Below are positions 20,273-38,622 of a stretch of 64,000 nucleotides of DNA, piece after piece. A program made the position numbers and the translations under genes. Each line of letters starts with the position of its first letter. Position 1 is the stretch's first letter. The DNA is from Cupriavidus sp. (GTDB lineage: Bacteria; Pseudomonadota; Gammaproteobacteria; Burkholderiales; Burkholderiaceae). A model generated the notes under the pieces. It worked only from the letters and a program-made list of their open reading frames with translations, did not search any database and was not told the DNA's origin. Location: NCBI GenBank assembly GCA_031180665.1, contig JAPSLP010000001.1, forward strand, positions 295,259 to 359,258, in the 5' to 3' direction.

Positions 20273-20857
20273 TCAGGTCGCCCGCTGCCCCGCATCGCGC
20301 AACGTCGTCACCAGCGACAGCAGCACCGACATCGGGATCGGCTTCGGGAATACCCGGATGCGGTCGGGCAGGCCGCCGCGGTCGGCGATCGCCTGCTTGT
20401 CCAGCGAGGTGACGACCGCGATTTCAGTGCTGGCCGACTCGGGCTCGGCATAGACTGCGCGGCACAGCCGAAAGCCGTCCATGCCGGGCATCAGCAGGTC
20501 CAGGATCACCAACTCGGGCCGGAACTTGCCGATCTGCAGCAGCCCCTCGTAACCGTCATCTGCCTCGAGGATTTCCACCGGAGGGGAGAGCGTCTCGAGC
20601 GCCATCCGGTAGATCTGCATCAGGTGCTCGTCGTCCTCGACCAGCAGCACGCGAAACGCGTGTGCCGCCTCGACCGAGGCGCTGTTGCGCTGGTCCTGCA
20701 CCAGCCGGTCGACTGCCTCGACCGGGATCCTTCGGTGTCCGCCGTCGGTCTTCCACGCGGGAAGGCGGCCGTTTTCCACCCACAGCTGCACCGTACGCAG
20801 GGACACACCCAGCATCTCGGCAGCGGTCCGCGTCGAATAGAAGCGAGTATCGCTCAT
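20273..20857 (-). CDS. Response regulator with N-terminal excisionase/MerR-like HTH
   Basis: YSTRTAAEMLGVSLRTVQLW...TDGGHRR fused to a REC domain (LLVEDD, LDLLMPGMDG). Confidence 0.88.
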   Translation of the reverse strand: MSDTRFYSTRTAAEMLGVSLRTVQLWVENGRLPAWKTDGGHRRIPVEAVDRLVQDQRNSASVEAAHAFRVLLVEDDEHLMQIYRMALETLSPPVEILEADDGYEGLLQIGKFRPELVILDLLMPGMDGFRLCRAVYAEPESASTEIAVVTSLDKQAIADRGGLPDRIRVFPKPIPMSVLLSLVTTLRDAGQRAT

Positions 20858-21251
20858 GGCTCGTCGAGTCAAGTGATGGTGATGCTAGTATCGGGTCCCC
20901 AATCTTGTGCGAAAATCTGCGAACCTGTGCGCCCAAAGAATACGAAATATGATAAACGATACCGTCGCAGCGCGCATCGCCCCGAGCACTTTTGAGCCAG
21001 TGTTGTCCTGTATCGGGGCGCCGTCCGCAGCCGTCGCCGTGCGCCATCTCGCCAGGGACCTGGCCTAGGGCCCGGCCCGACTCCGAGCCGATAGACGGCG
21101 CCGAGCTTACCCGCAGATTTTGTTCCGTGTTTCGCCAATTCCCCCGATCGCACACCATCGATTGGTGTCGTCCCTGCGCGATGGTGCGCTCCCTTGACAA
21201 CGGCAGGGTCGAAATGGGACACCGCCGGGTCCGGGGCACGATGAGCTGACC

Positions 21252-23282
21252 ATGCCGCACTGGGTATTGGAGCGCGCGGCGTTGCGCAGACGAACTGCCT
21301 TCTGGCCTGGCATTGCCATGGTGCTGAGCGTCTGGCTGGCCGTGGTGGCGTGGGGCAAGTGGGACAGGGACAACGCGCTGCAGGACATCCGCGCCGACGT
21401 CTCGCGCCTTGCCTACGCGCTTGGCCAGCATGTCCAACGCACGCTGACCGAAGCCGATCGCCTGACTTCGCTGATCGGCGGCATGGTGATCGAGCAGGGG
21501 CCGAACCTGCCGCTCGAGGCATGGCTGGGCACCAACGAGACGCATTCGCCGGCGTTCCTGCAACTGGCCGTCATCGACCGCGACGGCGTGCTGCGCAGCT
21601 CGACCAGCCCTGGTTTCGAGCCCATCGACCTGAGCGACCGCGAGCACTACCGCGTGCATGTCGACCGCCCGGTGCCAAGGCTGTTCATCAGCAAGCCCGT
21701 GGTCGGGCGAATATCCGGGCGCTGGTCGATCCAGCTGTCCAAGGGCATCGTCGACCAGGCCGGACGGTTTGCCGGCGTCGTGGTCCTCTCGCTCGATCCG
21801 GAGTACCTGACCAACCTCTACCGCAGCGTCTACCTCGGCAAGCATGGCCAGATCAACCTCGTCGGAGTCCACGACCGGGTGATACGGGCCAGCTGGAGCG
21901 GCAGCGAAAGCCAGCCCGGCCAGGTCATTCCGGCCGATTCCCCGCTCGGGCATGCCATCGCTGATCCGGCTGCGCCGATGGTCGGGGAGACCAGCCCGGT
22001 CGACCATATCACCCGCATTTTCGGCCTGCGCCGCATCCCGACGCGGGACCTGGTCATCGTCGTCGGCTACGACATCGACGAAGCGCTGCAGAACTACCGC
22101 GAGCGCCTGTTTGTCGTCATCTGCATGGCAACGGCGATCTCCGCGCTGATCGTCTTCTTCCAGATGCGGCAGGCCCGCGTGCTGCAGCGCCTGAAGGCCG
22201 TGGCCGACCACGAGGCGGCGATGAAGGACAGCCTGGAGGAAAAGCGCCGGCAATTGCATGCCCTGTTCCTCGCCATGCCCGATGGCGTCGCCCTGCTGGG
22301 GCGGGACAATCGCATCATCGAGGCCAACACGGCGCTGTGCGACATGATGGGCGTGTCGCTGACGCAGCTCAAGGGTGCGACGCCAGCCAGCTTTTCGGGG
22401 TGGCTCTACCGCGGACGCGAACCGGCCGCGCGCGCCTGCAGTGCGCGGACCCTGCTGGCGCAGATGAGCCAGCCGACGCAAGGGCGGGAGTTCGCCGCAT
22501 TGATCGAATTCGAGGGACCCGTTTCCCCGGCCTACGAGATCCGCATTGTCAGCGCCGGACGCGGCAACGGGATGGCGATCGTGCTGCGTGACGTCACCGA
22601 CCAGTTGCAGCACGACCGGATGAAATCGCACTTCGTCTCGATGGCGGCGCACGAGCTGCGCTCGCCGGTGGCCAGCATCGCAGGCTACGCGGAACTGCTG
22701 GCCACCGGCGTCGTCCCGACCGACAAGCGCACCGACATCTACCAGGGCATCCAATCGCGCGCCCGGCATCTGGATCTGCTGCTGACCGACCTGTTGGACC
22801 TGGCGCGCATCGAGATGCGCAGCGCCGGCGAGATGGCGCGCGAGCCGGTGGACCTCAATGCCTTCGTGCGCGAGACCTTGTCCAGGGAATTCCCGGACAA
22901 CGCGCGCATCCGGCTCGACGCCTGCCAGTCGGCCCCGATCGTGCTGGCCGACAAGCCTTTGCTGGCCCGGGCGTTGTGCAACCTGGTCGAGAACGCGCTC
23001 AAGTATTCCGCCCCGGAGCGCGAAGTCCGCGTCTGGCTCGACCGCCAAGCCACCGGCCAGGCCACGGTTGCCGTGTCCGATCAAGGGATCGGCATGAACC
23101 AGGAAGAAGCCGAACGGGCCTTCGACCGGTTCTACCGCGCCAACCGCAATGGGGTCGCCGGCACCGGGCTCGGCTTGGCGATCGTCAGGGAAATCGTCGC
23201 GTTGCACCAAGGTCAGATCGTGCTCGCCACCGAAGCCGGGCGGGGCACCACGGTCTCGCTCAGCCTGCCGACCATTGGCTAG
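21252..23282 (+). CDS. Sensor histidine kinase (dCache, PAS, HisKA, HATPase)
   Basis: DLSDREHY, FISKPVVGRISG; H-box AAHELRSP; NLVENALKYS, DQGIG, FDRFYR, GTGLGL. Confidence 0.93.
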   Translation: MPHWVLERAALRRRTAFWPGIAMVLSVWLAVVAWGKWDRDNALQDIRADVSRLAYALGQHVQRTLTEADRLTSLIGGMVIEQGPNLPLEAWLGTNETHSPAFLQLAVIDRDGVLRSSTSPGFEPIDLSDREHYRVHVDRPVPRLFISKPVVGRISGRWSIQLSKGIVDQAGRFAGVVVLSLDPEYLTNLYRSVYLGKHGQINLVGVHDRVIRASWSGSESQPGQVIPADSPLGHAIADPAAPMVGETSPVDHITRIFGLRRIPTRDLVIVVGYDIDEALQNYRERLFVVICMATAISALIVFFQMRQARVLQRLKAVADHEAAMKDSLEEKRRQLHALFLAMPDGVALLGRDNRIIEANTALCDMMGVSLTQLKGATPASFSGWLYRGREPAARACSARTLLAQMSQPTQGREFAALIEFEGPVSPAYEIRIVSAGRGNGMAIVLRDVTDQLQHDRMKSHFVSMAAHELRSPVASIAGYAELLATGVVPTDKRTDIYQGIQSRARHLDLLLTDLLDLARIEMRSAGEMAREPVDLNAFVRETLSREFPDNARIRLDACQSAPIVLADKPLLARALCNLVENALKYSAPEREVRVWLDRQATGQATVAVSDQGIGMNQEEAERAFDRFYRANRNGVAGTGLGLAIVREIVALHQGQIVLATEAGRGTTVSLSLPTIG

Positions 23283-23391
23283 GGGCAGGGCGCACGGAGC
23301 ACCAGGGCACTTCATGCGGTCGATGTCATAGTTGCAAACAATTGTAAATATGATAATCGACGGATCCGATTTGATAAAAATGATATATACT

Positions 23392-23480
23392 CCAACCCGT
23401 GAGCTCGTCCCCCCAGGCGGGTTCACTGACTGCAACTTCCCCGACCGGTGTCTTGGCGCGCACAAGACACCGCCTTTTTT
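23392..23480 (+). ncRNA. Candidate small RNA or leader ending in an intrinsic terminator
   Basis: TATACT at 23386-23391; AACCCG/CGGGTT hairpin; C-rich segments; 10-bp stem 23446-23455/23463-23472 followed by CCTTTTTT. Confidence 0.4.
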
Positions 23481-23667
23481 GGTCGCCAGCGGATCGGACC
23501 TGCAGTCCGCGTCAGGCCAGCGGCCTGCGCTCGGGTGATGCCATGACACAGCGTCGGCACGCAGCCCACCTCCTACGCACCGCGCGGCCAGTTGGGCCGG
23601 CGCACCATTGGCTCGTGCAGTCCTTCGACGTTCGCATCGAGCATGGCGCAACCGCCAGGTCCGTCCC

Positions 23668-26600
23668 ATGACCCGGCCCGCTTTCCCGACCTCCAGATCG
23701 CGCGCGCCGCTGCTTGCCCTGATCGTGTTCGTGACCATCACGATGGGCATGCTGGCCTGGTCGAACTACCGCTGGGAACACACGCTGGCCGAATGCCAGA
23801 TCGCGCAGGACCGGCTGGCCGATTCGCGCCGTGCGCTCATCCTGGCCGAACTGCAATTGGAGCGTCTGCTGCGCGGCGATCCCGCTTCCACGCGGGAACA
23901 GGTGGTGCGCTACCTCGCGCAGGCACGCGACAGCAGCCGGGCCCTGGCGACGGCCCACCATGGCGGCGTGCGCCTGGCCCATGGCCACGCCGAGGTCGCC
24001 GAGATGGCCGAGGCCGCCAGCCGCTACGCGGCGGCAGTCGACACCATGGCGCAGACCATGCTCGCGCGCCTGTCGGACAAGGGCAAAGGCAGGCAGCACG
24101 AGCAGCGCGGCCAGGCCCCTGCAGTGGAACAGAGCGCCGTCGCGCTCGAGAACGCCATCCTGCGCGATACCGCCGAACGCCGGCGCGCATTGCACCGGCA
24201 GGATGCCTTGAACATCGCGATCGTCGGCCTGCTGACGCTCGGTCTCTACGTGGTGCTCGCCCGCACCGAGCGGCGCCGCGCCGCGGCCCTGGCAGCGCTG
24301 GTGGACAGCGAGGCGCGCCTGCAGGCCATCGTGGCCGGGCTGCCCGGCATCGCGTTCCTGCTGGACGCCAATGGCGAGTACCTGGACGTGTTCGGCAGCA
24401 ACAGCGAACTGCTGCTCGAGCCCGCAGACTTGATGATGCGGCGCCGGATCACCGATGTACTGCCCGCGGCGGCCGTCGAAGGGTGTCTGCGTACCATCCG
24501 CCAGACCCTGGCGGCGCGGCGCACCACCACCTACGAGTACCAATTGACCGTCAATGGCCGGCAGCGGTGGTTCGATGCCCGTGTCGCGCCGGTAGGCAAT
24601 ACCGACACGGTGATCTGGCTGGCATGGGATGTCACCGAGCGGCGCCAGGCCGAACACCGCGTGCGCGAACTGTCGCGACTTTACGGATTCCTCAGCCACG
24701 TCAACCAGGCATGCATGCATGCCACGACGCCCGAAGCGCTCTACGCGCGCGCCTGCGCGGCGGCGCGGCATTTCGGTGGATTCAAGCAGGCGTGCGTGGC
24801 GCAGGCGGACGACCCCGTCCTGGCCGCGCTGCTGGCCCAGGGCCATGAGCAGATCGCCGAGGCCATACGCCCTGGCGGCGAGACCGCGGCCGAGGCCTGG
24901 GAGCAGGGCAGGGTGGTCTGCTTCACCAGGCTCGTGGGCGAAGACCACGCCCCTGCCTGGGCGGCGCTCGTGCTCAGGGACGGCATGACCGCCTGCGCGG
25001 CCATTCCGCTGCGCCGCGAGCAGCAACTGGTCGCGCTCCTGCTGCTGGCCACCGATACGCTGGACCTGCAGCGCCCCGAGGAATGCGAACTGCTGCAGGA
25101 GATCGGCGACGACATCTCGCATGCCGTCACACGGCTGGACCGGGACGCGCGGCACGCCGCGCACGTCGGGCGGATCCGGCTGCTGGCGGCCGCCCTGGAG
25201 AGTTCCCGCGACGGCATCATGATCACCCGTCTCGACGGGACCATCGTGTCGGTCAACCGCGCCTTCGTGCAGATGACGGGCTACGACGAAGCCCAAGCGG
25301 TCGGGCGCACGCCCGCGCTGCTGCGCTCCGGTGCCCATGGCGCCGATTTCTACCGGGCGCTCAACGAGGCGCTGGCACGCGACGGCTCCTGGCGCGGGGA
25401 GATCTGGAACCGCACCCGGCATGGCGCCGTGGTGCTGCATTTCCTGTCGATCAGCACCGTGCAGGGCGAAGACGGCAATCCCGACCGCTACATCGGCGTG
25501 CTGACCGACCTGACGCGCCTCAAGCAGACCGAGGATCGCCTCGACACGCTGACCTATTTCGATCCATTGACGGGACTGCCAAACCGGCTACTGCTGCGCA
25601 TGCGACTGGAGCAGCAACTGGCCGTCGCCACAGCGCATGGCGAGAGGCTTGGCATCCTGCTGATCGACCTGGATCGCTTCAAGACCGTCAACGACGGGCT
25701 CGGGCACGCCGCCGGCGACACGCTGCTGCAGGCCGTGGCCAACCGGCTGCAACAGCAGATGGGCCCACGCGACCTGCTGGGCCGCGAAGGCGGCGACGAA
25801 TTCGTCATCGTCCGCTGCGGGGCCGCCCACGCCGACGCCGGCGGCGAATTCGCCCAGCAGGTGCTGGCCGACTTCTCGCGGCCGTTCCACGTCGATGGGC
25901 AGGAGCTGTTCCTGCAGATCAGCATCGGCATGGCGCGCTACCCCGAAGACGGCGCACAGGCCGGCGAGCTGATCCGTCGCGCGCAGGCCGCGGTACACGA
26001 AGCGAAGCGCTCCGGCGGCGGCAGCCTCGGCCGCTATGCCACATCGCTGACGTCGGCAGCCAGCCACCGCCTGACGCTCGAAGCGCGCCTGCGCCGCGCG
26101 CTGCAACAGGACCGGTTTGAGCTGCACTATCAGCCGCTGGTGGACCTGCGGCGCGGCAAGGTGGTCGGCGCGGAGGCCGTGCTGCGGCTGCAGGACGAGG
26201 AGGGCGAAGCGATCGGGCCGGCGCAGTACATCCCGGTGCTCGAGGAAACCGGCATGATCCTGGAGGTCGGCCGCTGGGTCGAACTCGAGGCGTGCCGGCA
26301 AGGACGCCGCTGGCTCGACGACGGATACGACATCGAAGTGCTCGCCATCAACCTGAGCGCCTCGGAGATCCGCAGCGGCACCGTGCATGCCCAATTGCAG
26401 CAGGTGCTGGCACAGACCGGCTTTCCGCCGGAGCGGCTGGAACTGGAAGTCACGGAATCCGGGCTGATCTCACAGGGGGACCACGCCGCGGACTTCCTGC
26501 GCGGACTGAAGACTCTGGGCATCAAGCTCGCGATCGACGACTTCGGTACGGGCTATTCGTCGCTGGCCTACTTGCGCGATTTCCCTGTCGACAAGCTCAA

Positions 26601-26875: not shown

Positions 26876-26969
26876 CGGACATTACTGTTTGGCTCCAACA
26901 TCCGTCGCCCCAGCGGTTTTCGGTGGTCCGGCTTGGGGCCAAAGTCAGACGTCAGGCCGAGCGTGCTTT
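26876..26969. repeat. Relic IS1202-type terminal sequences (an IRL-like and an IRR-like copy)
   Basis: 26876-26900 matches 29684-29708 at 15/25 positions; 26925-26969 aligns with 28154-28197 with one indel, sharing CCGAGCGTGCTTT exactly. Confidence 0.5.
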
Positions 26970-27264
26970 GCACTTTGGCGGCGATGTCCCAGTACGTGCC
27001 CAAAGCCGTGGGCAAGGTCACGCCATCGGCCCATAGCTCGATCCGTCATCTGGGTATTCGGGCACCTCGATGGCGCGGGCGATCGGCTGAGGTGGGCCGG
27101 CCCGTTGGCCAGCAGTCAATTACCGATTCCGAAGAGACGACCGACATCGTGCGCGTCGCCCGCGCTGCAGAAGAGCTCCAAGCCGCCAGAGACATACTTG
27201 GCACGCTGAACTTCCCCTCTGCTATACTTGTCCCATTAGTTGAACAACTCTTTGGGAGAGGGCA

Positions 27265-28157: not shown

Positions 28158-29708
28158 TGGCTTCGGCTAATTTCAAATGTCAGTCCGAGCGTGCTTTTTG
28201 TGGGGTGCCCGTAACGCAGTCAAGCTGGCCGTGGTCGATGCCGCCTCAACTGGGTGGGGCGCCGGTACTGGCAATGGCCCGCTCCAGATCCAGCCGATTG
28301 ATCTGCCACTTGCGCTTAGTGTGCGGCGCGGCTTGGGCGCGGGTTGGATCTTGGCCACTGAGCGTGCGTGACGGCCCCGCGGTTTGCCGATCGTCCCTGA
28401 GCGCCTGCACCTTGGCGGCGATCTCCAGCACGTGCCCCAGCCGCTCGTGCGCGACGATGTCCCCTTGCCGGATGGTTTCCCGCGGATCGAACACGCTGTA
28501 GGGCAGGGCAGCGCCATCGGCCCACAGCTCGATCCGGCCATCGGGGCATTCGGCCACCTCGATGGTGCGCCCGATCAGCCGGCGGTGTTCCGGCACATTG
28601 ACCAGCGATAGACGACCTTGCCGTACTGCAAAGTCAGGCTCTGCGAGACCTTGCGCCATTCGCGCCAGGTAAAGATCCGCTCGAGGTCTTCATCGGCGCG
28701 CACCGGCCGGTGCGCATTGAACTCGCTTCGGGGCACCTTGGCAAAGCGCGCATTGAACTCAGCCATGAAGCTCGCGGCAAAGCCGTTGGCGGCGGGGAGG
28801 GTGGCAATACCGCGCAACCGCAGCTCCTTGACCAGCCGGTCCTGCAGCACGCCGTGCATCCGCTCCACGCGCCCCTTGGCCTGGCTCGAATTGGCGGACA
28901 GGATGTCGATGTTCAGCTCGAACAGCGCGCGCCCAAACTGCGTATAGCCGCGCCCGTCCGGCCCGTCCTTGGCATTGACGCGGAAGATGCCGGCCTTGTC
29001 GCTGTAGAACGCCACCGGCTTGCCGTGGCGTTCCACGTAGGCCCGCGTCGCCGCAAAGTACGCGAAGGTCGATTCGGTCGGCACAAACGACAGCTGCATC
29101 AGTTGGCCGGTGGCGTCGTCGACGTAGACCAGCAGCGTGCAGGCCGGCGCGCGGTCCTCGAACCAGCGGTGATCGCTGCCATCGATCTGGATCAGCTCGC
29201 CATAGCAGGCGCGCCGGTGCCGCGGCTGGTAGACCTTGGGCGGGCGCAGCTTGCGCGGGACCCAGAAGCCGGCGTCGATCATGATCCGGCGCACGCAGGC
29301 CCTCGACAGTTCGATGCCGTGGCATTGCCGCAGCTTCTCCCAGGCCAGCGTGGGGCCGAAGTCAGCGTAGGTGTCGCGAATCAGGCCGCGTACGCGCGCT
29401 TCTAGACCGGGCGGCAACTGCCGATTGCCCGGACGACCGCGACTGCGCGAAATCAGCCCGCTAGGGCCATCTTCCTGCAATCGCAGCACCAATCGCCGGA
29501 CTTGCCGCGCGCTGATACCCAAGCGCTCAGCGGCACGCCAACGCGCCAGATGGCCGTCGGCGACCGCCTGAACGACCTTGAGTCGATCCAACTCCCGCGT
29601 GCTCATCGTCACCCATCCCTGATCGTTCACCGCTGGCTCCTCGAGAATCCAACGAGCCGTTGACGGTATCGATCATGGGCGACGTGACATTTCTATTCAT
29701 GCCTAACA
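28158..29708 (-). mobile_element. IS1202-family (ex-ISNCY) insertion sequence
   Basis: Left end reads TGTTAGGCATGAATAGAAATGTCAC on the - strand from 29708; imperfect right end TGGCTTCGGCTAATTTCAAATGTCAG at 28158-28183; DDE transposase inside. Confidence 0.78.
28246..29630 (-). pseudogene. IS1202-family DDE transposase with a 1-bp deletion near 28609
   Basis: HTH; IQIDGSDHRWFE, VYVDDATG, YSDKAGIF, AKGRVER. Frame changes at QYGKVVY/LVNVPEHRRLIG. Confidence 0.85.
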
Positions 29709-30508: not shown

Positions 30509-33500
30509 CTAGAGGCGCAACGACTGCTTCGCAGCTTCGACATCGGCACGCTCGGCATCGCGCATCCATCCTTCGGAGACGCGCATCAGCATGGCCGAGG
30601 TACGGGGGAACTCGTGCGTGGCGGCGGCCCAATCGCGAGCCTGCTTTGCCAATTCGCGCTCTTGGTCCCCGCCCTCCCCAATGCCTTTGCTATAGACCCC
30701 CCTCATGTTGAAGCGCTCAACTGCCAGTCCATTCTCTAACTCGTCTGACGCGATGCACTCGATGGCATGCCGTACGGCCTCATGCGGCCATGCACCGTCG
30801 AGTTGACTTGCCGGTGCATGAGCCAGCAAGTGCCCAATCCTACTGTCCGTGACATCCACCCGGTCCATTTCCTTAGCCAAATCGCGCACTTCACCGCACC
30901 ATTGCAGAAGAATCTTTCCATCAACATCATTACCAACTTGCCCAGGTAGTAGCTGAAGGCTCCCAAGCAGGTCGTATGCCGCTACTGCCAGACGGCGTTC
31001 GTTTTCCGACACCTCTCTCCCTTCTGTGTTGGCCGCCTTAAAGACAGCACAAATTGCATCCATAAACCACCCCGCTCGCTCTACCATCAGTCGATGCAAT
31101 GTGAGAGGCTTTTTTCTTCGGCCGAAGATCGGGAGGTATGTAAACTCCCGCTTGGCAAGTTCTTCGGAAGCAACATCGTTTCTGGTCTCCAGTTCCTCGA
31201 ATACCTGTTCAAGATAGTACGCGGTCATGGTTCCTCCCCGACCTCCAGATGTGTTGATTTCTAGAATCGCAGAATCCAGAAGGTGCAAAAGCGTTTCCGA
31301 TTTGACCTCTTTCAGGCGACCGACGGCAGTTTCAATTGCCGCCATCGGGCGCCCACGCGACGCGTAGTTTTCGATGGCAAAGAAAAGTTCCTCGGTATTT
31401 CCCTTTATCGAGTATGAGTGCTTCTGTGCCCAGAACGCTTCGTTGACCTCTCGCCCAAACGAACTGACCACTTCCCAGGCCCGCATGTTCTCGTCCAGCG
31501 CAGTTAACAGGCGCGCCGTTCGGCTTGGTTCTACTTCAAATGCGGCAACGATATCTTGAACATCGATGGCGAAACTGTCGCCAAACCGCGTCAAGCCTTC
31601 GGCGATAATTGTCGCGCTCGCGACATCAAGTCCGTCCCCCGCTTCTACCGCCAGCCGTAAAAGCGTCGCCAGTTGTTCTCTTGGTAACCGCAGAGCCTGT
31701 GCTGCCACAGCTACACTGTGTGGCAGCTTTACGCGCTTTGCCAAATCAATTAGTCCCTGCGGACCGCTACTTGCGGCAATCGCTTGAATGGCCTCGCAGC
31801 GTGCTACTTCAACCGGCGCCATAGGGTCGCCTGATGTGGCACCTAAGCCCGGTACCGTCGGCAACCAGTCATCAAAGAGCCAGATATGCTGAAGCAACGG
31901 GTCATCCGGCTTGAATTTCTCAATAACAGCATCGACCCGGGTCAACGCATCAGGCCTCAGAGCCCAGTCTGTATCTGCAAAGGTTCGGTGCCGATTCGCT
32001 TCGCGCCGCAATGCGTCCCATATCGGAAATCGGATTCCGCTAGTAACTTCTGCAAGCACGGTATCCAGCGCACTGAGCATACTGTCCAAAGACTCTGCGG
32101 GAAATTCGCTCATTGCACCAATGAGCGTTGCCCATCGCTCCGGGTCCTGCCCAACGTGCTCCAGCGCGAGGCGAACGACTGCGGTCTGGCTCTCCCAAAC
32201 CACGCCATAAGTCAGCGCCTCCTCCTCGGCATCACCGAACTCGCGGAATTTCGGCGTAGCCGTTGGGCTCGATGTGTCATGCGAGCGAGGCAGCAGCTTC
32301 GTGAGCAACGGCCAAGCAATGGCAGGTACCGCCTTGACGATATGTGCAAGAACCGCCGTTCTCTGTTTCGCACGGGCGCTGGTATTGGGTGACCACGAAA
32401 GAAAGATGGCGCGCAAGCTGTTGATGGGGCGATTGGAGAGCGACCCTCCCGGATCGACCGCTGCCAGACGCGCGAGACACATGGCAGAACGAAGCAGAAG
32501 CTTCCGGTCCCAGGCAAGCGTCTCCAGTGCCCACAGCAGCCCGACGTGGTAGGTCTGGGGAGTGAGAAAGCCCCTATGTTCGTCGAAGATCGGTTTGATT
32601 GCCGCAGGGTCGCCCTCAAGCAGGCGCTCGAGGGCCTCAAGAAAAGGGATGGGAGCGGCCTCCGCGAGCAGGGCGAGGTTATCTTGCAGACTCGCAAGTA
32701 ACCTATAGTCATTTGACAGACCCGGCAGGCCTCGGACGATACCGTTCACGAATTCTTGAGGTGTCGAGCCCTGCACGGTGAAATCAGCCTGCTTGTGCAA
32801 CACTGCCATATGCAAGAGCATGGTCATCATCCCTTCACGAAGCCAGCTGCTATGGGTATCCTGCCTCTCCGACCTCGGCCTGAACAGATCATCCTCTTTC
32901 GGCGCCGGCGGAATGTAGGAGAAAACCTTTGTTGCCGCGGCAGAGAACTGACGCAGGTGCTCTGGCCCGATGAGATGACCGAGGTGGACAAACGCGTCCA
33001 CAGATGAACGCATGGTCCACACGTCACCCACGTGGTCCACTGGCGGATCTTTCAACTTCGCGAGCTGCCGTAGTGGAGCCTCGACCATCTCATATTCGGC
33101 ACACCTAGCAAGCGTGCAGAGTATCGCCCGGTCCGAGTCGCTGGAGGTTGCCCAGGCGCCCGCGAACAATGCGGGCAACAGTGGCTCCGCACGGTCCATC
33201 CATTCCGGCCTTTCAGCGGTACCGCTTGGCCTCTGGCGTGCCAGCACGGCCAGACTCCGCCCGCAGTGCCGCGCAATTTCGTATCCCTGCTCCTCAGTGA
33301 ATCCCATGGCAACGAACGCCTTGCCGAGAGCTGAGCTGTGCGGTCGGTTGAGCAGGACATGAGTCGACCGCCTTTCGTCCGCGCCTGCACTGACGATGGT
33401 GGGACCGTATTGGGAAAGCAGCCCCGCGAAGCCCCGTGCCTGTCCTCGGGGCAGGAAGATAAGTCCTTTCTTGCCGACAAGTGCTCGCGCGGCTTCCTCG

Positions 33501-34264
33501 GTATCCACGATTAAGGTACGCGCTTCGAGAAAAAAGCGTACGGACGGTTCAGCCCGACGAATCGCTGCGACGGCGAAAGCCAGAACTTCGTCCGGAGAAT
33601 CGGCCGCGTAAGCAAGGCTAGCAGTAGCTTCATTGAGTCCGCGCAAAAGCTCTTCGCCTTGCGGCTCCCGACCGGCAAGCAGAACTTCCTCAACAAGAGC
33701 CGGGGAAAATCTGTTTGAGAACTCTTCCCAGAACTCATCAATGCTCCGCGCCCCTACTGAAGGCATCAGCCTCAGCTCGTATCTCGCCCAGCGGGCGGCA
33801 ACTGCTGGGCATGCGCTCAACCATTCTTCCAGCATCGCACCATCGATGTACCTGACATCCTTCCACTCTCCTTGCTCGCGCTTCGCCCGCACCCAATCTG
33901 GCAACTTCACCGTGGGGTTATCCCAAGTCCTTGGAGAAACGAAAACAAATGTCGTTTCTTTCCGCGCAGCCTCGTCAACCTGCTTTGTTCGCTTCTCGTA
34001 GTCACTGGTAGCCTTTCCGGCTGCGCCCTCAGTAACGCCGAACTCCCAGATTGACCTCCCATCCGGCACGTATGGAGGCATCCCAGCCGCTTCCAGCACG
34101 CCGTCGAAGCCCCGAACCTGCCCCTTGTCACCGCTTGGGAAGCGGATGTCGGTGATGTTCGCCGCGGTTGCTCGCACTAAGTCGGCGACCAGCGCCGGGA
34201 AACTGGTTCTAGCTTGAAGTGTATCTGCCCACTGTTGGAGGTTTGTCGCTGTGACCCAACGCAT
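30509..34264 (-). CDS. Uncharacterised 1251-aa protein: REase/Mrr-like N-terminus, degenerate STAND-like region, long helical C-terminus (candidate defence protein)
   Basis: Long clean ORF in lower-GC DNA with AAGGGG RBS. GFDG...SIWEFG...KATSDYEKR...FVFVSPR...VRYIDGAMLEEWL; no intact Walker A. Confidence 0.8.
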   Translation of the reverse strand: MRWVTATNLQQWADTLQARTSFPALVADLVRATAANITDIRFPSGDKGQVRGFDGVLEAAGMPPYVPDGRSIWEFGVTEGAAGKATSDYEKRTKQVDEAARKETTFVFVSPRTWDNPTVKLPDWVRAKREQGEWKDVRYIDGAMLEEWLSACPAVAARWARYELRLMPSVGARSIDEFWEEFSNRFSPALVEEVLLAGREPQGEELLRGLNEATASLAYAADSPDEVLAFAVAAIRRAEPSVRFFLEARTLIVDTEEAARALVGKKGLIFLPRGQARGFAGLLSQYGPTIVSAGADERRSTHVLLNRPHSSALGKAFVAMGFTEEQGYEIARHCGRSLAVLARQRPSGTAERPEWMDRAEPLLPALFAGAWATSSDSDRAILCTLARCAEYEMVEAPLRQLAKLKDPPVDHVGDVWTMRSSVDAFVHLGHLIGPEHLRQFSAAATKVFSYIPPAPKEDDLFRPRSERQDTHSSWLREGMMTMLLHMAVLHKQADFTVQGSTPQEFVNGIVRGLPGLSNDYRLLASLQDNLALLAEAAPIPFLEALERLLEGDPAAIKPIFDEHRGFLTPQTYHVGLLWALETLAWDRKLLLRSAMCLARLAAVDPGGSLSNRPINSLRAIFLSWSPNTSARAKQRTAVLAHIVKAVPAIAWPLLTKLLPRSHDTSSPTATPKFREFGDAEEEALTYGVVWESQTAVVRLALEHVGQDPERWATLIGAMSEFPAESLDSMLSALDTVLAEVTSGIRFPIWDALRREANRHRTFADTDWALRPDALTRVDAVIEKFKPDDPLLQHIWLFDDWLPTVPGLGATSGDPMAPVEVARCEAIQAIAASSGPQGLIDLAKRVKLPHSVAVAAQALRLPREQLATLLRLAVEAGDGLDVASATIIAEGLTRFGDSFAIDVQDIVAAFEVEPSRTARLLTALDENMRAWEVVSSFGREVNEAFWAQKHSYSIKGNTEELFFAIENYASRGRPMAAIETAVGRLKEVKSETLLHLLDSAILEINTSGGRGGTMTAYYLEQVFEELETRNDVASEELAKREFTYLPIFGRRKKPLTLHRLMVERAGWFMDAICAVFKAANTEGREVSENERRLAVAAYDLLGSLQLLPGQVGNDVDGKILLQWCGEVRDLAKEMDRVDVTDSRIGHLLAHAPASQLDGAWPHEAVRHAIECIASDELENGLAVERFNMRGVYSKGIGEGGDQERELAKQARDWAAATHEFPRTSAMLMRVSEGWMRDAERADVEAAKQSLRL

Positions 34265-34437
34265 CTAACGTCCCCTTATTGTTAAAAACGCAAACTTGCA
34301 AGCCCGAGGGTCCCGCCGATTACCTGTGCGGTTCCGCGGACTGCAAGAAACCCCTTGATACCGTTAGCTTCGCCAGATGCATTTGGGGCTCCCCGTTGCT
34401 CGCGGTTCTTGCCGACCTTCTTGTGTCAGTCGACATG

Positions 34438-36684
34438 TTACAGGGCCGGATTTGCTTCCTCGACCGCCTTTTGCACATCTGATATCGCCGACGTGAGAAG
34501 TGACTTGACCTCTTCCATAAATTCGAGCGCAGAAGCATCACCACGCGCATCGGGTACCGGAATCCATCGCTCGTAAATCCCCTCCACTCGCATTTTGCGG
34601 TCAAATGTGCTTCCCGTCCCTCGCAACGCATACGCACCAAGCCAAATTGGCTGCGGCAGTTCACGCAGACGCCGGTGGCTCAGCTTGGGCAATTGTTGTG
34701 CGACCGCCGCCTTGACTCGGTCAATGGTTTCACGTTTTTGCTCGGGCGTCGGATTGCCCGACCAGGCAATGGGACTCTCGAGAAATCTGGATAGGGACGA
34801 CGAAAGCGCAGCAATAAGATTAGAAGTTGGCTGAAGCACAAAGCCATCGTCCCAGCCTTCCGCGTAGCGTCGCGTCAGTGCCTTCACAGTCTGCCAAGGA
34901 CGCGGTTTGAAATGCGGATGCGGCGACAAGCCAAGTAGACCCTGCCATTGTTGGCGAAAATCACGTGCGGCCTCTTGGATTGCAAGAACGAGGTTGTCCA
35001 TGCTGTACTGCGGGAATGCGACTGGCTCAAACACCGGCGGTTGTGCGGCCACCAGCATTGCGAGCAACCTATTCAGTTCAGGCTTTGCCGGCTTCGGGTC
35101 GAGCTCATGAATTTTGCCGACGTAAAACGTGTTGCGCTCGAGGTGTTCCAACAGATAGCGCGCGGCGTCCCCGGAGACATTCTTGGCCAACTGATTCTCG
35201 GCAATATTGCGCAGGCCGCCGAAGACATGGTCTAGCTTCGCCTGCCCCCTGAGGTTATCGCCCCGGACCGTGTCCATATGTGTGAAGACTACGGCAAGCT
35301 TACGCGTGTAGCCCGAGTTCACGACGCTTTCGAGAGCCTTGCCTGCGGCGAAGCTGGTCATTCCGTTCTTCGCGCTATCAACCAGCAGTACAACGTCCGC
35401 GTCGTGGAGTAGCGACAAGACTCCCTCCGGTAGGTCGGCCGTCGCGTTTGCCTTGTGCCCCAAGCCTTCTGTGTCGACCAAAACAAGCCGGGGCTTATCT
35501 TCCGCCCATATTGGCCGAAAGGGGCCTGCTACCCTCAGACCCGTCACCAGCGGAGTGAGCAGTTTGCCAAATGCCTGATAAGCATTGCCCGAGAATAGGC
35601 GGACCAACCGCAGAAACGCCTCCCGCCCGTCCGCACCTGACTTGAGATGCCATGCGGTCGGCCAGCCCGTGGTGGTCTTTTCAAAGCGACCGACAGAAAC
35701 GCCTTCGAATTTGGTCTTGACCTCATCCAGCACGTCCGAGACCAATTCAAGATAGGCATCTGAACTGACGGCCTGCTCCTCGATCAGGTCGAGTGCCACG
35801 CCACGGTCCTCGGCATTCATGTCAGCAATCACGCCGTGGGCAGCCTCAACTTCCGCCTTGGCGGAAATGGCAAGCGACTGAATGCGCGTTAGAAAGCCCT
35901 CAAGCGTCTGCTGCAACGTAGCATGTTCGTCCGGAAGCAACGTGGGGGCGTCGTCCGAGTCGGTCGCCGCTTCTTCGTCGACATCCTCATAAGGGTCAAT
36001 GTCGCCATCATCGTCGAGGTCTCCTAGCAGATACTTGAGCCGGAAGCGCATATCGCTCTTTTCCAGGAACGCTCGCGCAACCTGCCGTGTATCGCCTTGC
36101 ACGGCCTCAACAATGGCAGCGGAAATCGACTCCTCTATCTCGAAGCGAGCTTCATGTTCCGACATGAACGTGACAACGGCTTCATACTCGCCGTCGCGCA
36201 GCACCAATTCGGAGGGAAACGTAGTAGTGCGATTAACCGAGGTCGACGGAAACCGCTCGGTCTTCGGATTCGTACCCATCAGCTGTCGCACAAGGGTGGT
36301 CTTTCCTGCCCCCGGCGCGCCCATCAGCACGACACGCGCATATCCTTCGGCACTCGTTGGCAATGGCAATAGCTTGTCGCAGAGCTGCCGCGCCGTTGTC
36401 ACGCGAGGCTCAATCTCGCTATAGAAGATGTCGACAACGCGGGGGTCAAAGCGCCGGGCGGCTTCGCCGCGGGCACCCAGCGACCACAACGCCTCGTCCC
36501 TCAGTAGTTCGTTGAGTTCGCTGACGAGTCGTTGTGCGAGCGCCTCATCTTCGGTTCCAAGCCCCTTGCGAGTTTTCTTGCCTGGCCGGTTGCTCGTGTC
36601 GCTTTTGAGCGGATGCCGGAATTCCACCAACCAGCCCTTTCGTCCTGGATTGCGCTTTGCGGCTGCCGTGTAGGGACCCGCCAT
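34438..36684 (-). CDS. Dynamin-like GTPase with N-terminal integrase-arm-like DNA-binding domain (candidate defence protein)
   Basis: G1 GAPGAGKTT, G2 STSVNRTTT, G3 DTEG, G4 THMD; N-terminal GWLVEFRHP...GKKTRKGLGTEDEALA; GGAG RBS before ATG 36684. Confidence 0.8.
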   Translation of the reverse strand: MAGPYTAAAKRNPGRKGWLVEFRHPLKSDTSNRPGKKTRKGLGTEDEALAQRLVSELNELLRDEALWSLGARGEAARRFDPRVVDIFYSEIEPRVTTARQLCDKLLPLPTSAEGYARVVLMGAPGAGKTTLVRQLMGTNPKTERFPSTSVNRTTTFPSELVLRDGEYEAVVTFMSEHEARFEIEESISAAIVEAVQGDTRQVARAFLEKSDMRFRLKYLLGDLDDDGDIDPYEDVDEEAATDSDDAPTLLPDEHATLQQTLEGFLTRIQSLAISAKAEVEAAHGVIADMNAEDRGVALDLIEEQAVSSDAYLELVSDVLDEVKTKFEGVSVGRFEKTTTGWPTAWHLKSGADGREAFLRLVRLFSGNAYQAFGKLLTPLVTGLRVAGPFRPIWAEDKPRLVLVDTEGLGHKANATADLPEGVLSLLHDADVVLLVDSAKNGMTSFAAGKALESVVNSGYTRKLAVVFTHMDTVRGDNLRGQAKLDHVFGGLRNIAENQLAKNVSGDAARYLLEHLERNTFYVGKIHELDPKPAKPELNRLLAMLVAAQPPVFEPVAFPQYSMDNLVLAIQEAARDFRQQWQGLLGLSPHPHFKPRPWQTVKALTRRYAEGWDDGFVLQPTSNLIAALSSSLSRFLESPIAWSGNPTPEQKRETIDRVKAAVAQQLPKLSHRRLRELPQPIWLGAYALRGTGSTFDRKMRVEGIYERWIPVPDARGDASALEFMEEVKSLLTSAISDVQKAVEEANPAL

Positions 36685-36694
36685 GTTATTCTCC

Positions 36695-36789
36695 AATGTT
36701 CCAGAATGTTCCACAAACTCTGCTTGAGCCTAATAATAACGCGGCCAGCCGAAATGTCAACGAATTTGCGGAACATCATGGAACATCAT
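36695..36789 (-). promoter_or_regulatory. Sigma70-type promoter of the GTPase gene flanked by inverted tandem GGAACAT repeats
   Basis: -35 TTGACA (36760-36755), 16-bp spacer, -10 TATTAT (36738-36733); AATGTTCCA twice at 36695 and 36705; GGAACATCAT twice at 36770 and 36780. Confidence 0.65.
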
Positions 36790-36856: not shown

Positions 36857-38622
36857 TCACGGTACGAGGGGCATGCGGCTTGACGACCCGATTCCATCGG
36901 AGAATGCCTCCCCGATTTGCCGTGCCCGCTTCACTTCATCGCTGTGCAAATATACGGAAGTTGTGGACACCGACGCATGTCGCAGATTGTCCCGAACACT
37001 GGTCAATTCCACGCCTCGGCCTAGAGCATGCGTGGCATGCGTATGCCGCATCCAGTGCGGACTGGCCCGGCGCAGCTTATCCGCCGCCGCGGGATGGTCC
37101 GCACCAATGACCTCCGCGGCCAGCTTGAAGAACCGCTTCACCACATGCCATAGCCGCGTACTGGTGATGCCGATATCCGGCTCGCCGGTCAGGTCACCGA
37201 CCAGGGCAATCTCCGGGCGCCACAGCCTCCGGCTGATCGGCAGCCCGCGTTCCGTCAGATGGCACTCCAACGCCCGCCGCGCCAACGGCGGCAATGCCAC
37301 CTTGCCGCTGCGCCCGCCCTTCCCTGTCAACTTGAGCCATTCGTCCCCCTGTCCGTCGGTCTCGATATCGCCGAGCCTTGCCGCGATCAATTCGCTAGCC
37401 CGCAGTCCGGTGGCATAGCCGAAATCCAGCACAAAGCGCAGGCGCTGCGCGGCGGCCTCCTCCCAACCGTAGGACCACTCCAGCCCGTCGGCGATGGTCC
37501 GCACCAGCTTCCATTCGCCTTCGGTGAAGGCGCGTGAATTGTCCAGCGCCGCCGTGCGGCCACCGCCGCGGACCTTGATGCCCGCGAACGGATTGGCGAG
37601 GACGTACCGCTGCTGCACCAGCCAGCGGAACATCGCACCAAGAATCGAGAGCGCATGGGCGACCGAGCGTGCCGATAGTGCGCCGCTGAATGGCCGCCAG
37701 TCCGGCGACGAACGCGGGCGTGGCGGACCGACCCACCGCTCGCGCGGCGTGGGCCGACGCAGGAAGGCGCGATAGGCGACGGCGTCCTCGGTGGTCAGCG
37801 ACGACAACGGCCGTTGCCGCTCGACGATCGCCCACAGGATCAGCCGTTCCGCTTCCTTGCGGTAGGTGCGATGGGTGGCGGGCGATTCGTGCAGCGCCAG
37901 CCAGCCCTGCACCGCCTCGTAGTCGTTGTCCGCGGTCAACGTGCAACTCTCACGCGGCGCGCGAAACCGCCCTCGCGAGCCGTCCACTTGATAAGGCAGG
38001 CGCAACTGCTCCCATGGCACGACGACACTGCGCCGCTCCTGCACGATCAGCGCGCGTGCGCGCTCGGTCAATTCGGGATGCGCGGCGAAGAACGCCTCGA
38101 TCTGCCTGGCGCTCGTGGCGCCCAGCCTCGGGATGGCCGTCCACCAGCGGCGGCGCCTGGGCACGCGCACGGTCAGCGCCGCGAGCGTATCGATACCGTG
38201 GGCGCGCAAGGCGGCGACGGCGCGCGCCGGTAGCCAGCGACCGATGTCGTCGGTGATCGCGGGCCGCGGCGGCGGGAGCGTGCGCAAGACCTCAATGGCA
38301 CGGCCGGCAGCCCTGCCCTGCTCCACCCGCTCGGACGCCGGCATCTCGAACAATGCGGCCAGATCTTCGCGGCCGCGCTCGCGTGCGAGCGAAGCAAGCC
38401 GGCGGCGAATGCGGCCAAGCACGGCGCGCGAGATTGGCCGCGCGCCCTCTCCTCACCCAGGTATTGCGCCACGGCTTGCCGGGAGCTAAGGCCGGCATGC
38501 CAGGCGCGCAGCGCGGCCAGGGAGGCGGCATCGGGGAATGCCGTGGAAGCATCGGCGGAGGACGTATCCATACCCGTGCTGGAGGCGGAGGCGGAGTCCG
38601 GTAGGGTCAGTCGCGCTTTCAT
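36857..38622 (-). pseudogene. Tyrosine recombinase (DUF3701-type phage integrase family) with a 1-bp deletion near 38432
   Basis: N-part FPDAASLAALRAWHAGL...GQS joins RAVLGRIRRRL in another frame. Catalytic GLRASEL, GKGG, HWMRHT, LRHASV, TTSVY are intact. Confidence 0.85.

Follow-up and report, generated by a model that had tools for sequence, protein, structure and literature searches.

We analyzed 64,000 nucleotides (nt) of Cupriavidus sp. DNA (contig JAPSLP010000001.1, positions 295,259 to 359,258; hereafter, the window) and found in it a gene for a protein of 1251 amino acids (aa) which, with a probability of about 0.6, we read as a stand-alone, horizontally mobile receptor-effector of the immune type, organized like the nuclease-headed antiviral STAND proteins and most like Avs4. 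According to the predicted structures, a PD-(D/E)xK head is followed by an AAA+/STAND-like nucleotide-binding domain (NBD) devoid of a P-loop, a helical lid, a winged helix, and a HEAT-like solenoid of ~820 aa. Within its large unnamed family the gene is ordinary, and the interest lies in the family. Coordinates of the gene, its domains, and the neighboring features are collected in Table 1.

The open reading frame (ORF) consists of 1251 uninterrupted codons between positions 30509 and 34264, as seen in both the ORF listing and the translation. An earlier note made from the letters of this DNA had placed a 1251-aa protein there; the strand, missing from that note, is minus. Every motif quoted in it was recovered from the translation at the relative positions it gave, including GFDG with D54, WEFG with E74, and KATSDYEKR with K84, D88, and R92 in the head, followed by VRYIDGAMLEEWL (aa 137-149), LLAGRE (aa 195-200), LAYAADSPDEVLAF (aa 217-230), ARTLIVD (aa 248-254), and IARHCGRSLAVL (aa 330-341). 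Pairwise comparisons with four relatives at 85-93% identity yielded dN/dS ratios of 0.12-0.17 for the whole gene and below 0.3 for each domain of the protein. The ORF is not a chance frame, since these ratios go together with more than 500 full-length homologues of almost the same length (53-93% identity). These data indicated that the ORF is a genuine gene under purifying selection.

The size of the family was estimated by a phmmer search with aa 1-560 against 1.84 billion representatives of clusters at 50% identity, in which 3,609 representative clusters were matched at E<1e-3, with 1,556 of them reaching E<1e-30; a length of 1240-1280 aa is shared by nearly all family clusters. The whole protein had no match in Pfam, NCBIfam, or PADLOC, and searches of PDB sequences with profiles of the whole family, the head, and the middle domain gave chance-level matches only. 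The family has been recorded before, as phrog_18693 in PHROGs v4, a set catalogued from (pro)phage genomes, whose profile aligns at full length with our protein (aa 1-1250 versus profile positions 1-1255 of 1258; 1237 bits). The entry carries unknown function, no annotation, and no domain analysis, and thus merely records that the family had been seen. Literature searches for a P-loop-less STAND defense family turned up no account of it.

Two AlphaFold2 models were built from an alignment of 48 sequences spanning 27-85% identity, one covering aa 1-360 (predicted local distance difference test [pLDDT] score, 92.3; predicted template modeling [pTM] score, 0.89) and the other covering aa 346-1251 (pLDDT, 90.8; pTM, 0.78). 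When the first model was compared with the PDB using Foldseek, the top match was Avs4 bound to a phage portal (8dgf; E = 3.7e-4), and the alignment of 343 columns spans both the head and the NTPase-like domain. The next matches were SAMD9 and then a series of AAA+ proteins (ClpB, ClpC1, RFC/Elg1, NSF, p97, ATAD2, and RuvB), of which ClpB was matched with a probability of 1.00 and a root mean square deviation of 4.9 Å over 236 columns. Among viral models, weak matches were obtained to AAA+/RFC-like proteins, an Mrr-like protein (E = 0.04), and endonuclease I (E = 0.12). An NBD, a helical domain (HD), a winged-helix domain (WHD), and then repeats follow one another in this order in the models, and Avs4, SAMD9, and AAA+ proteins are the Foldseek matches. 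The effector-STAND-repeat layout of an NLR or Avs protein, as proposed in the earlier note, is therefore borne out by confident models and by the first rank of Avs4; the AlphaFold and Foldseek check suggested there, once run, returned a restriction endonuclease (REase)-type head, an AAA+/STAND-like domain, and a HEAT-like C terminus.

The head (aa 1-165) was modeled with an alpha-beta-beta-beta-alpha-beta core, made up of helix 16-33, strands 37-41, 55-59, and 69-75, helix 81-95, and strand 104-109, at a pLDDT of ~90 in this region. D54 opens the second strand and E74 closes the third in the model. Conservation was then counted over 270 family members aligned to the family hidden Markov model. 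The acidic pair, on whose conservation the first reading of this DNA had been made to depend, is invariant, with D54 being Asp in 261/261 covering sequences and E74 being Glu in 264/264, and G52, G55, and W73 are nearly as constant. Position 76, where the lysine of a canonical ExK motif is expected, is occupied by Gly in 244 sequences, Ser in 16, and Lys in 4. Position 84, on the helix after the third strand, is Lys in 260 sequences and acidic (Glu or Asp) in precisely those 4 that have K76. A lysine is therefore present at 76 or 84 in 264/264 sequences, never at both and never at neither, and such mutual exclusion speaks for a functional active site. The glycine that had been seen in place of the lysine is indeed there (G76), but the lysine is not lost and sits at K84; judged from the alignment, the putative catalytic lysine has migrated. 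Such migration is familiar within the PD-(D/E)xK superfamily. We conclude that the head is a predicted PD-(D/E)xK nuclease with D54, E74, and K84 as its putative catalytic residues. The REase fold attributed to the N terminus at first sight is present in the model, whereas the accompanying label "Mrr-like" has no counterpart at the sequence level: the Pfam profile Mrr_cat did not match any of 33 family heads at E values up to 10, the same 33 heads scanned singly against Pfam at that threshold revealed no recurring family, and a profile search of the head against PDB sequences gave no match above chance.

A head that is catalytically dead, or an REase fold that purely binds DNA, would turn the protein into a large regulator or scaffold. 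Such a role would agree with the RefSeq name "helix-turn-helix transcriptional regulator" given to several plasmid homologues, with the glycine that replaces the ExK lysine in most members, and with the lack of a sequence match of the head to any nuclease family. Yet the two acidic residues are invariant, and the constant supply of one lysine, at either of two mutually exclusive positions, is hard to explain without catalysis; furthermore, the RefSeq label stems from an XRE-type HTH_3 extension of ~100 aa that the 1251-aa protein does not have. We thus regard an inactive head as very improbable.

The middle domain (aa 166-300) was modeled as an alpha/beta domain in which strand 216-220 runs into helix 224-236 and is followed by strands 250-253, 269-272, and 289-293. 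In this placement, "LAYAA" forms the strand that precedes the P-loop in NTPases, and "TLIV-D" forms the Walker-B-like strand. At the Walker A site, between strand 216-220 and helix 224-236, the protein reads A-D-S-P-D-E, and the family consensus is A-D-S-x-x-E-x-x-A-F. The motif GxxxxGK[ST] occurs in none of the 48 diverse sequences, the 270 aligned members, or 16 loci reaching down to 21% identity, i.e., in none of ~290 relatives. Since Walker A is missing from every relative and the region is under purifying selection (omega of 0.08-0.25 for aa 170-430), its absence is a trait of the whole family and not the decay of this copy, and the domain is a maintained pseudo-NTPase. To call the STAND NTPase "apparently inactivated," as had been done, was apt; the idea of a P-loop that has decayed was not borne out. 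Sixteen diverse middle domains scanned against Pfam at E values up to 10 yielded nothing relevant and no recurring family, nor did the middle-domain profile find anything relevant among PDB sequences, and no link to STAND or AAA+ profiles (NACHT, NB-ARC, AAA_16, and nSTAND) emerged. The predicted STAND/AAA+ identity of this domain is derived from its modeled fold and from the domain order.

Several residues of the middle domain are strongly retained, including R199 of the LAGR motif (266/268), E226 (260/268), and D222, along with an acidic residue at position 254 after the TLIV strand (Asp or Glu in 228/267) and R/K273 after strand 269-272 (193/267). They could line a noncanonical pocket (R199, D222-S223, E226, D254, and R273) through which the domain binds, and perhaps hydrolyzes, a nucleotide, so that the protein would be an aberrant but true STAND switch. 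Conservation of these residues at 72-99%, their location at the sites of the P-loop, Walker B, and sensor 1 of AAA+/STAND folds, and the purifying selection on the domain would fit such a pocket. Against it, neither a glycine-rich loop nor a Lys/Ser-Thr pair exists in the ~290 relatives, and an acidic DSxxE loop is electrostatically ill suited to hold phosphates without a metal. Nucleotide binding of this kind is therefore unlikely in our judgment, and we retain the reading of a pseudo-NTPase.

The helical lid (aa 301-348) consists of helices 310-320, 324-333, and 338-344 in the model and carries R343, which is conserved in 255/262 sequences. In the second model, whose numbering starts from aa 346, the winged helix was seen as helices 31-41 and 47-57 followed by strands 64-67 and 70-73. 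A winged helix had been foreseen in the earlier note at IARHCGRSLAVL; one does exist, at about aa 376-418 and with a beta-hairpin, but IARHCGRSLAVL itself lies within the helical lid.

The C-terminal portion (aa 431-1251) is all-helical in the model (pLDDT, 90.8). Foldseek matches of aa 346-1251 were HEAT-repeat proteins, including FANCI, karyopherins, CAND1, DNA-PKcs, and the HEAT subunits of condensin and cohesin. Its best-conserved block is aa 526-625, with the motifs LAEAAP... and IDPGGxxxNRPINSLR. Its most variable block, aa 701-1000, shows 20-24% pairwise identity, compared with 39-41% in both the head and aa 561-700, and dN/dS is also highest there within the protein. This variable block is a candidate contact surface for a phage component.

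A different role for the solenoid was also considered, in which it would clamp DNA directly, as FANCI and DNA-PKcs do, and the protein would be a DNA-directed nuclease of mobile elements, acting in the exclusion of plasmids or competitors, in recombination, or in repair. The top Foldseek match of the solenoid is a FANCI-DNA complex, with DNA-PKcs, condensin CAP-G, Scc2, and Pds5 also listed; its polar motifs are strongly conserved, the family gene is carried by integrative and conjugative elements (ICEs), plasmids, and prophages, and many relatives bear an N-terminal HTH_3 DNA-binding head. However, HEAT-repeat matches are generic, as karyopherins and CAND1 score equally, and the order of head, NBD-like domain, WHD, and repeats is the signature of NLR/Avs receptors. 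Moreover, the neighbors of the family are typical defense genes and not repair genes, and the variability of aa 701-1000 agrees with a sensor that binds protein. On balance, direct action on DNA of this type has a small but appreciable chance of being correct, and the Avs-like receptor remains our preferred reading.

The gene resides in an island. Two large genes, the 1251-aa gene and a GTPase-like gene, are bracketed by an ISNCY transposase and a DUF3701 integrase, and both lie within 30-36 kb of the window, where the G+C content is 57-59%, compared with ~66% in the rest. Host-type genes flank the island: a histidine kinase gene and a GGDEF-EAL gene precede it in the window or follow it, and TetR and GST genes lie across from them. 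Because a search for its boundaries revealed neither a tRNA gene nor convincing direct repeats of the att type in the flanks, the ends of the island are undefined.

Table 1. Position of the 1251-aa gene, its predicted domains, and neighboring features in the window
Feature	Position	Strand	Basis
ISNCY-family transposase	28575-29630	minus	library match
Gene of the 1251-aa Avs-like protein, complete	30509-34264 (stop codon 30509-30511)	minus	ORF and translation
HEAT/ARM-like alpha-solenoid, putative sensor, aa 431-1251	30512-32974	minus	AlphaFold2 and Foldseek
Predicted winged-helix domain, aa 349-430, two helices and a beta-hairpin (~aa 409-418) with conserved W416	32975-33220	minus	AlphaFold2
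Predicted helical lid (HD), aa 301-348, conserved CGRSLAVLAR (R343)	33221-33364	minus	AlphaFold2
Predicted AAA+/STAND-like alpha/beta domain without P-loop, aa 166-300	33365-33769	minus	AlphaFold2 and Foldseek
Walker-B-like strand TLIVD	33503-33517	minus	
Walker A position, DSPDE after strand 216-220	33584-33607	minus	
Predicted PD-(D/E)xK-type nuclease head, aa 1-165	33770-34264	minus	AlphaFold2 and conservation
Codon of K84	34013-34015	minus	
Codon of E74	34043-34045	minus	
Codon of D54	34103-34105	minus	
Shine-Dalgarno-like AAGGGGA, 6 nt ahead of the ATG at 34264	34271-34277	minus	read from sequence
GTPase-like gene (748 aa as called elsewhere), dynamin/MMR_HSR1-like	34438-36714	minus (same strand as the 1251-aa gene)	
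Near-consensus sigma-70 promoter (TTGACA, 16 nt, TATTAT; 11/12 matches), just upstream of the GTPase gene	36733-36760	minus	
DUF3701 tyrosine integrase	36857-38422	minus	

The neighboring GTPase raised the question of a two-gene system, in which the upstream 748-aa protein would supply the nucleotide switch for a receptor without a P-loop, in line with the "partner NTPase next door" of the earlier note. The local arrangement speaks for such a pair: both genes are on one strand, 173 nt apart, and inside the low-GC segment; a strong sigma-70-like promoter stands upstream of the GTPase gene, with no promoter or terminator detected between the two genes; and a near-identical contig (L047) repeats the arrangement. 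The partnership was tested from the sides of both genes and rejected, as the link is seen only in this strain and in L047. Using tblastn and all-against-all blastp, we found the GTPase beside a homologue in 0 of 13 other loci with flanks, and it is not beside the homologue in the Rhizobium plasmid locus L033 or in L046 either. The relative in L046, at 93% identity, is preceded by a UvrD-like helicase and followed by a DUF6538 integrase; an 87% relative is accompanied by a DEAD-YjiV-MZB helicase with an integrase, and an 85% relative follows a Lamassu operon, where Mrr and QueC are also present. Among eight other carrier genomes, a GTPase homologue occurs in one, on a different contig. The GTPase, in turn, belongs to a family that is large by itself (more than 1,684 matches, ~750 aa) and, in the three independent contexts examined (four loci, L029-L032, of which L031 and L032 have the same arrangement), has no relative of the 1251-aa gene nearby; there, it sits among other genes of the defense or mobile-element type. 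Comparative genomics thus largely refutes the partnership, which we consider very improbable. Since the all-against-all comparison of neighbors in the 13 loci revealed none that is shared, the 1251-aa gene is a single-gene unit without a conserved partner.

Two further observations concern the edge of the island and its surroundings. Just outside the transposase, several short segments (21-41 nt; 82-90% identity) recur in the same order at a distance of 1.2-1.5 kb (26937-27087 versus 28165-28579), as if part of a small gene at the edge of the island had been duplicated and the copies had since diverged. An ORF of 1064 aa (20556-23750, minus strand) has no family match and overlaps the histidine kinase gene (21252-23282, plus strand) in antisense; it is most likely a spurious shadow frame of high-GC DNA.

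Several points weigh against the reading of the 1251-aa protein as an Avs-like receptor with a nuclease head. The Foldseek E values are modest (3.7e-4 to 1e-2) and the TM-scores are low, the latter because several domains were aligned at once, and direct matches to REase folds are weak (E = 0.04-0.12). The head and the middle domain have no sequence-level homology to any Pfam, NCBIfam, PADLOC, or PDB family, and for this reason, both assignments, nuclease and STAND, are based on motifs and the predicted structure. The solenoid is well conserved overall and contains invariant polar residues (E535, E581, D604, N611, R612, E1040, H1161, N1186, R1188, and E1202), which a conserved ligand or a second activity would explain as well, in place of a fast-evolving sensor. 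Since neither promoter nor terminator was detected in the 173-nt gap of the window, co-transcription with the GTPase gene is possible in this strain. Finally, we found no experiment on any member of the family.

The distribution of the family was examined in genomes, plasmids, and phages. Carriers make up 9 of the 401 genomes sampled from the same order and 11 of the 401 sampled from the phylum (~2%), and 25 plasmid records hold a member, 11 of these plasmids being conjugative. One copy is on the conjugative plasmid pRtrCIAT899b of Rhizobium tropici (L033), beside RT-SLATT and a Shedu fragment. Other loci lie in an ICE context (DUF3438), adjoin a P2-type replication gene (a P2-like element), or are next to type I restriction-modification genes or to AbiEii and an SNF2 helicase, and one copy lies in the accessory region close to the integrase of a predicted prophage. 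A collection of phage GenBank records gave one partial match and nothing more. As a whole, the family comprises thousands of 50%-identity clusters, which extend past the Proteobacteria and are borne by islands in chromosomes as well as by plasmids, ICEs, and prophages. Such a distribution is that of an accessory gene of the defense type that spreads horizontally. In Stenotrophomonas and Cupriavidus (L002 and L017/L018), the homologue is found in the same chromosomal neighborhood, by a Mg-chelatase/ComM-like gene, BMFP, and glnK (P-II), which suggests a recurrent integration hot spot.

Relatives with other heads were also found. An HTH_3 domain (XRE type, ~100 aa) precedes the nuclease in 5 of 7 full-length matches in the phylum sample and in the Rhizobium plasmid copy, and it is because of this extension that RefSeq uses its regulator label. 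These HTH-headed proteins form a large subfamily of 1350-1410 aa (L033:6713-10783, L035, L037, L039, and L040). In addition, a sister family of 1183-aa proteins was detected on seven IMG/VR contigs and in one genome, where it is split in two; its loci include the predicted prophage contigs L051 (3884-7432), L052-L055, and L057 and the split copy L041/L045. It shares only the winged helix and the solenoid with our protein, at 27% identity from about aa 365. Its middle domain is shorter and has no Walker A either, and its head is a different one, PD-(D/E)xK-like by its motifs (GGGGVHFE ... GFDTDD ... GQIKHS, resembling E...D...QxK). An alignment of the two heads with hhalign was not significant (E = 0.36; 8 columns around GFD), and hence, homology between them is not claimed.

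The closest described systems are Avs4 in fold and layout, KpAvs8 in its degenerate motifs, and Upx in the lack of an NTPase. Avs4 (antiviral STAND type 4; 8dgf, in complex with the portal of phage PhiV-1) likewise combines an REase-fold, Mrr-like nuclease, an NBD-HD-WHD module, and a large helical-repeat sensor in a single polypeptide, was the best structural match of aa 1-360 over its 343 columns, and shares the accessory, island-borne lifestyle. In contrast to Avs4, the 1251-aa family lacks Walker A throughout, its head is of another sequence family with the lysine on the helix after the third strand, and its putative sensor is HEAT/ARM-like, best matched by karyopherins and FANCI and not by Avs sensors; sequence similarity between the two is not detectable, and the PADLOC models of Avs proteins did not match. 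In the nuclease-headed KpAvs8 (Avs8/PD-lambda-4), both Walker A and Walker B are degenerate, "suggesting a lack of ATPase activity," whereas EcAvs8 retains its Walker motifs, and Avs8 is triggered by the major capsid protein (bioRxiv 10.64898/2026.01.04.697583). KpAvs8 thus offers an earlier case of an Avs-type receptor functioning without hydrolysis of ATP, although degeneracy is confined to some Avs8 homologues and the P-loop is missing across the whole 1251-aa family. The 1251-aa protein had no match in PADLOC-DB 2.0, which is weak evidence against membership in Avs8, as the presence of PD-lambda-4 and Upx models in that release was not checked. Upx is a single protein in which a terminase sensor is joined to a PD-(D/E)xK nuclease without a STAND NTPase, and it becomes toxic on sensing the phage protein (PMC13601566). 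It resembles our protein in being large and in coupling an unannotated sensor to such a nuclease without a functional NTPase. It differs in having the sensor at the N terminus and the nuclease at the C terminus, in lacking an NBD-HD-WHD module, and in sensing by beta-augmentation and not with a HEAT solenoid.

By analogy with Avs3, Avs4, and the newer Avs families, we propose that the 1251-aa protein is probably a single-gene, ATP-independent, Avs-like abortive-infection nuclease; its defense function, type of trigger, oligomerization, independence of ATP, and DNA target are what we infer from that analogy. At rest, the nuclease heads would be kept apart by the solenoid together with the pseudo-NTPase module. 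Binding of a phage-derived molecule to the solenoid, most likely a conserved phage protein, would shift the conformation of the pseudo-NBD/WHD module, and this shift would drive oligomerization, either without binding or hydrolysis of ATP or by means of a noncanonical ligand in the "ADSxxE" pocket. The heads thus brought together would cut DNA nonspecifically, and the infection would be aborted. Since there is no P-loop, activation would run without canonical ATP binding, and the precedents of KpAvs8 and Upx make ATP-free activation feasible.

A nucleotide switch is considered essential to the STAND/NLR receptors of bacteria and humans alike. More tentatively, and with less confidence than an even chance would imply, we suggest that the family may represent a very widespread class of receptors of the NLR/Avs type that dispense with nucleotide binding, in which the NBD-HD-WHD module would act as a ligand-driven scaffold for conformational change and oligomerization and fire a nuclease with a migrated lysine, or in which the acidic "ADSxxE" pocket would read another small molecule, while sister lineages place an XRE-type HTH or another nuclease head on the same WHD-solenoid. 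Being present in ~2% of the sampled genomes, the family is frequent enough to make up a sizeable unannotated part of bacterial defense islands; it escapes Pfam, NCBIfam, and PADLOC, and a STAND survey that starts from NTPase motifs would probably overlook it as well. The pattern of lysine migration offers ready-made mutants. A large, strongly conserved, and selected family with the full NLR architecture but no P-loop would be a natural test of whether NBD-HD-WHD can serve as a pure ligand-driven scaffold.

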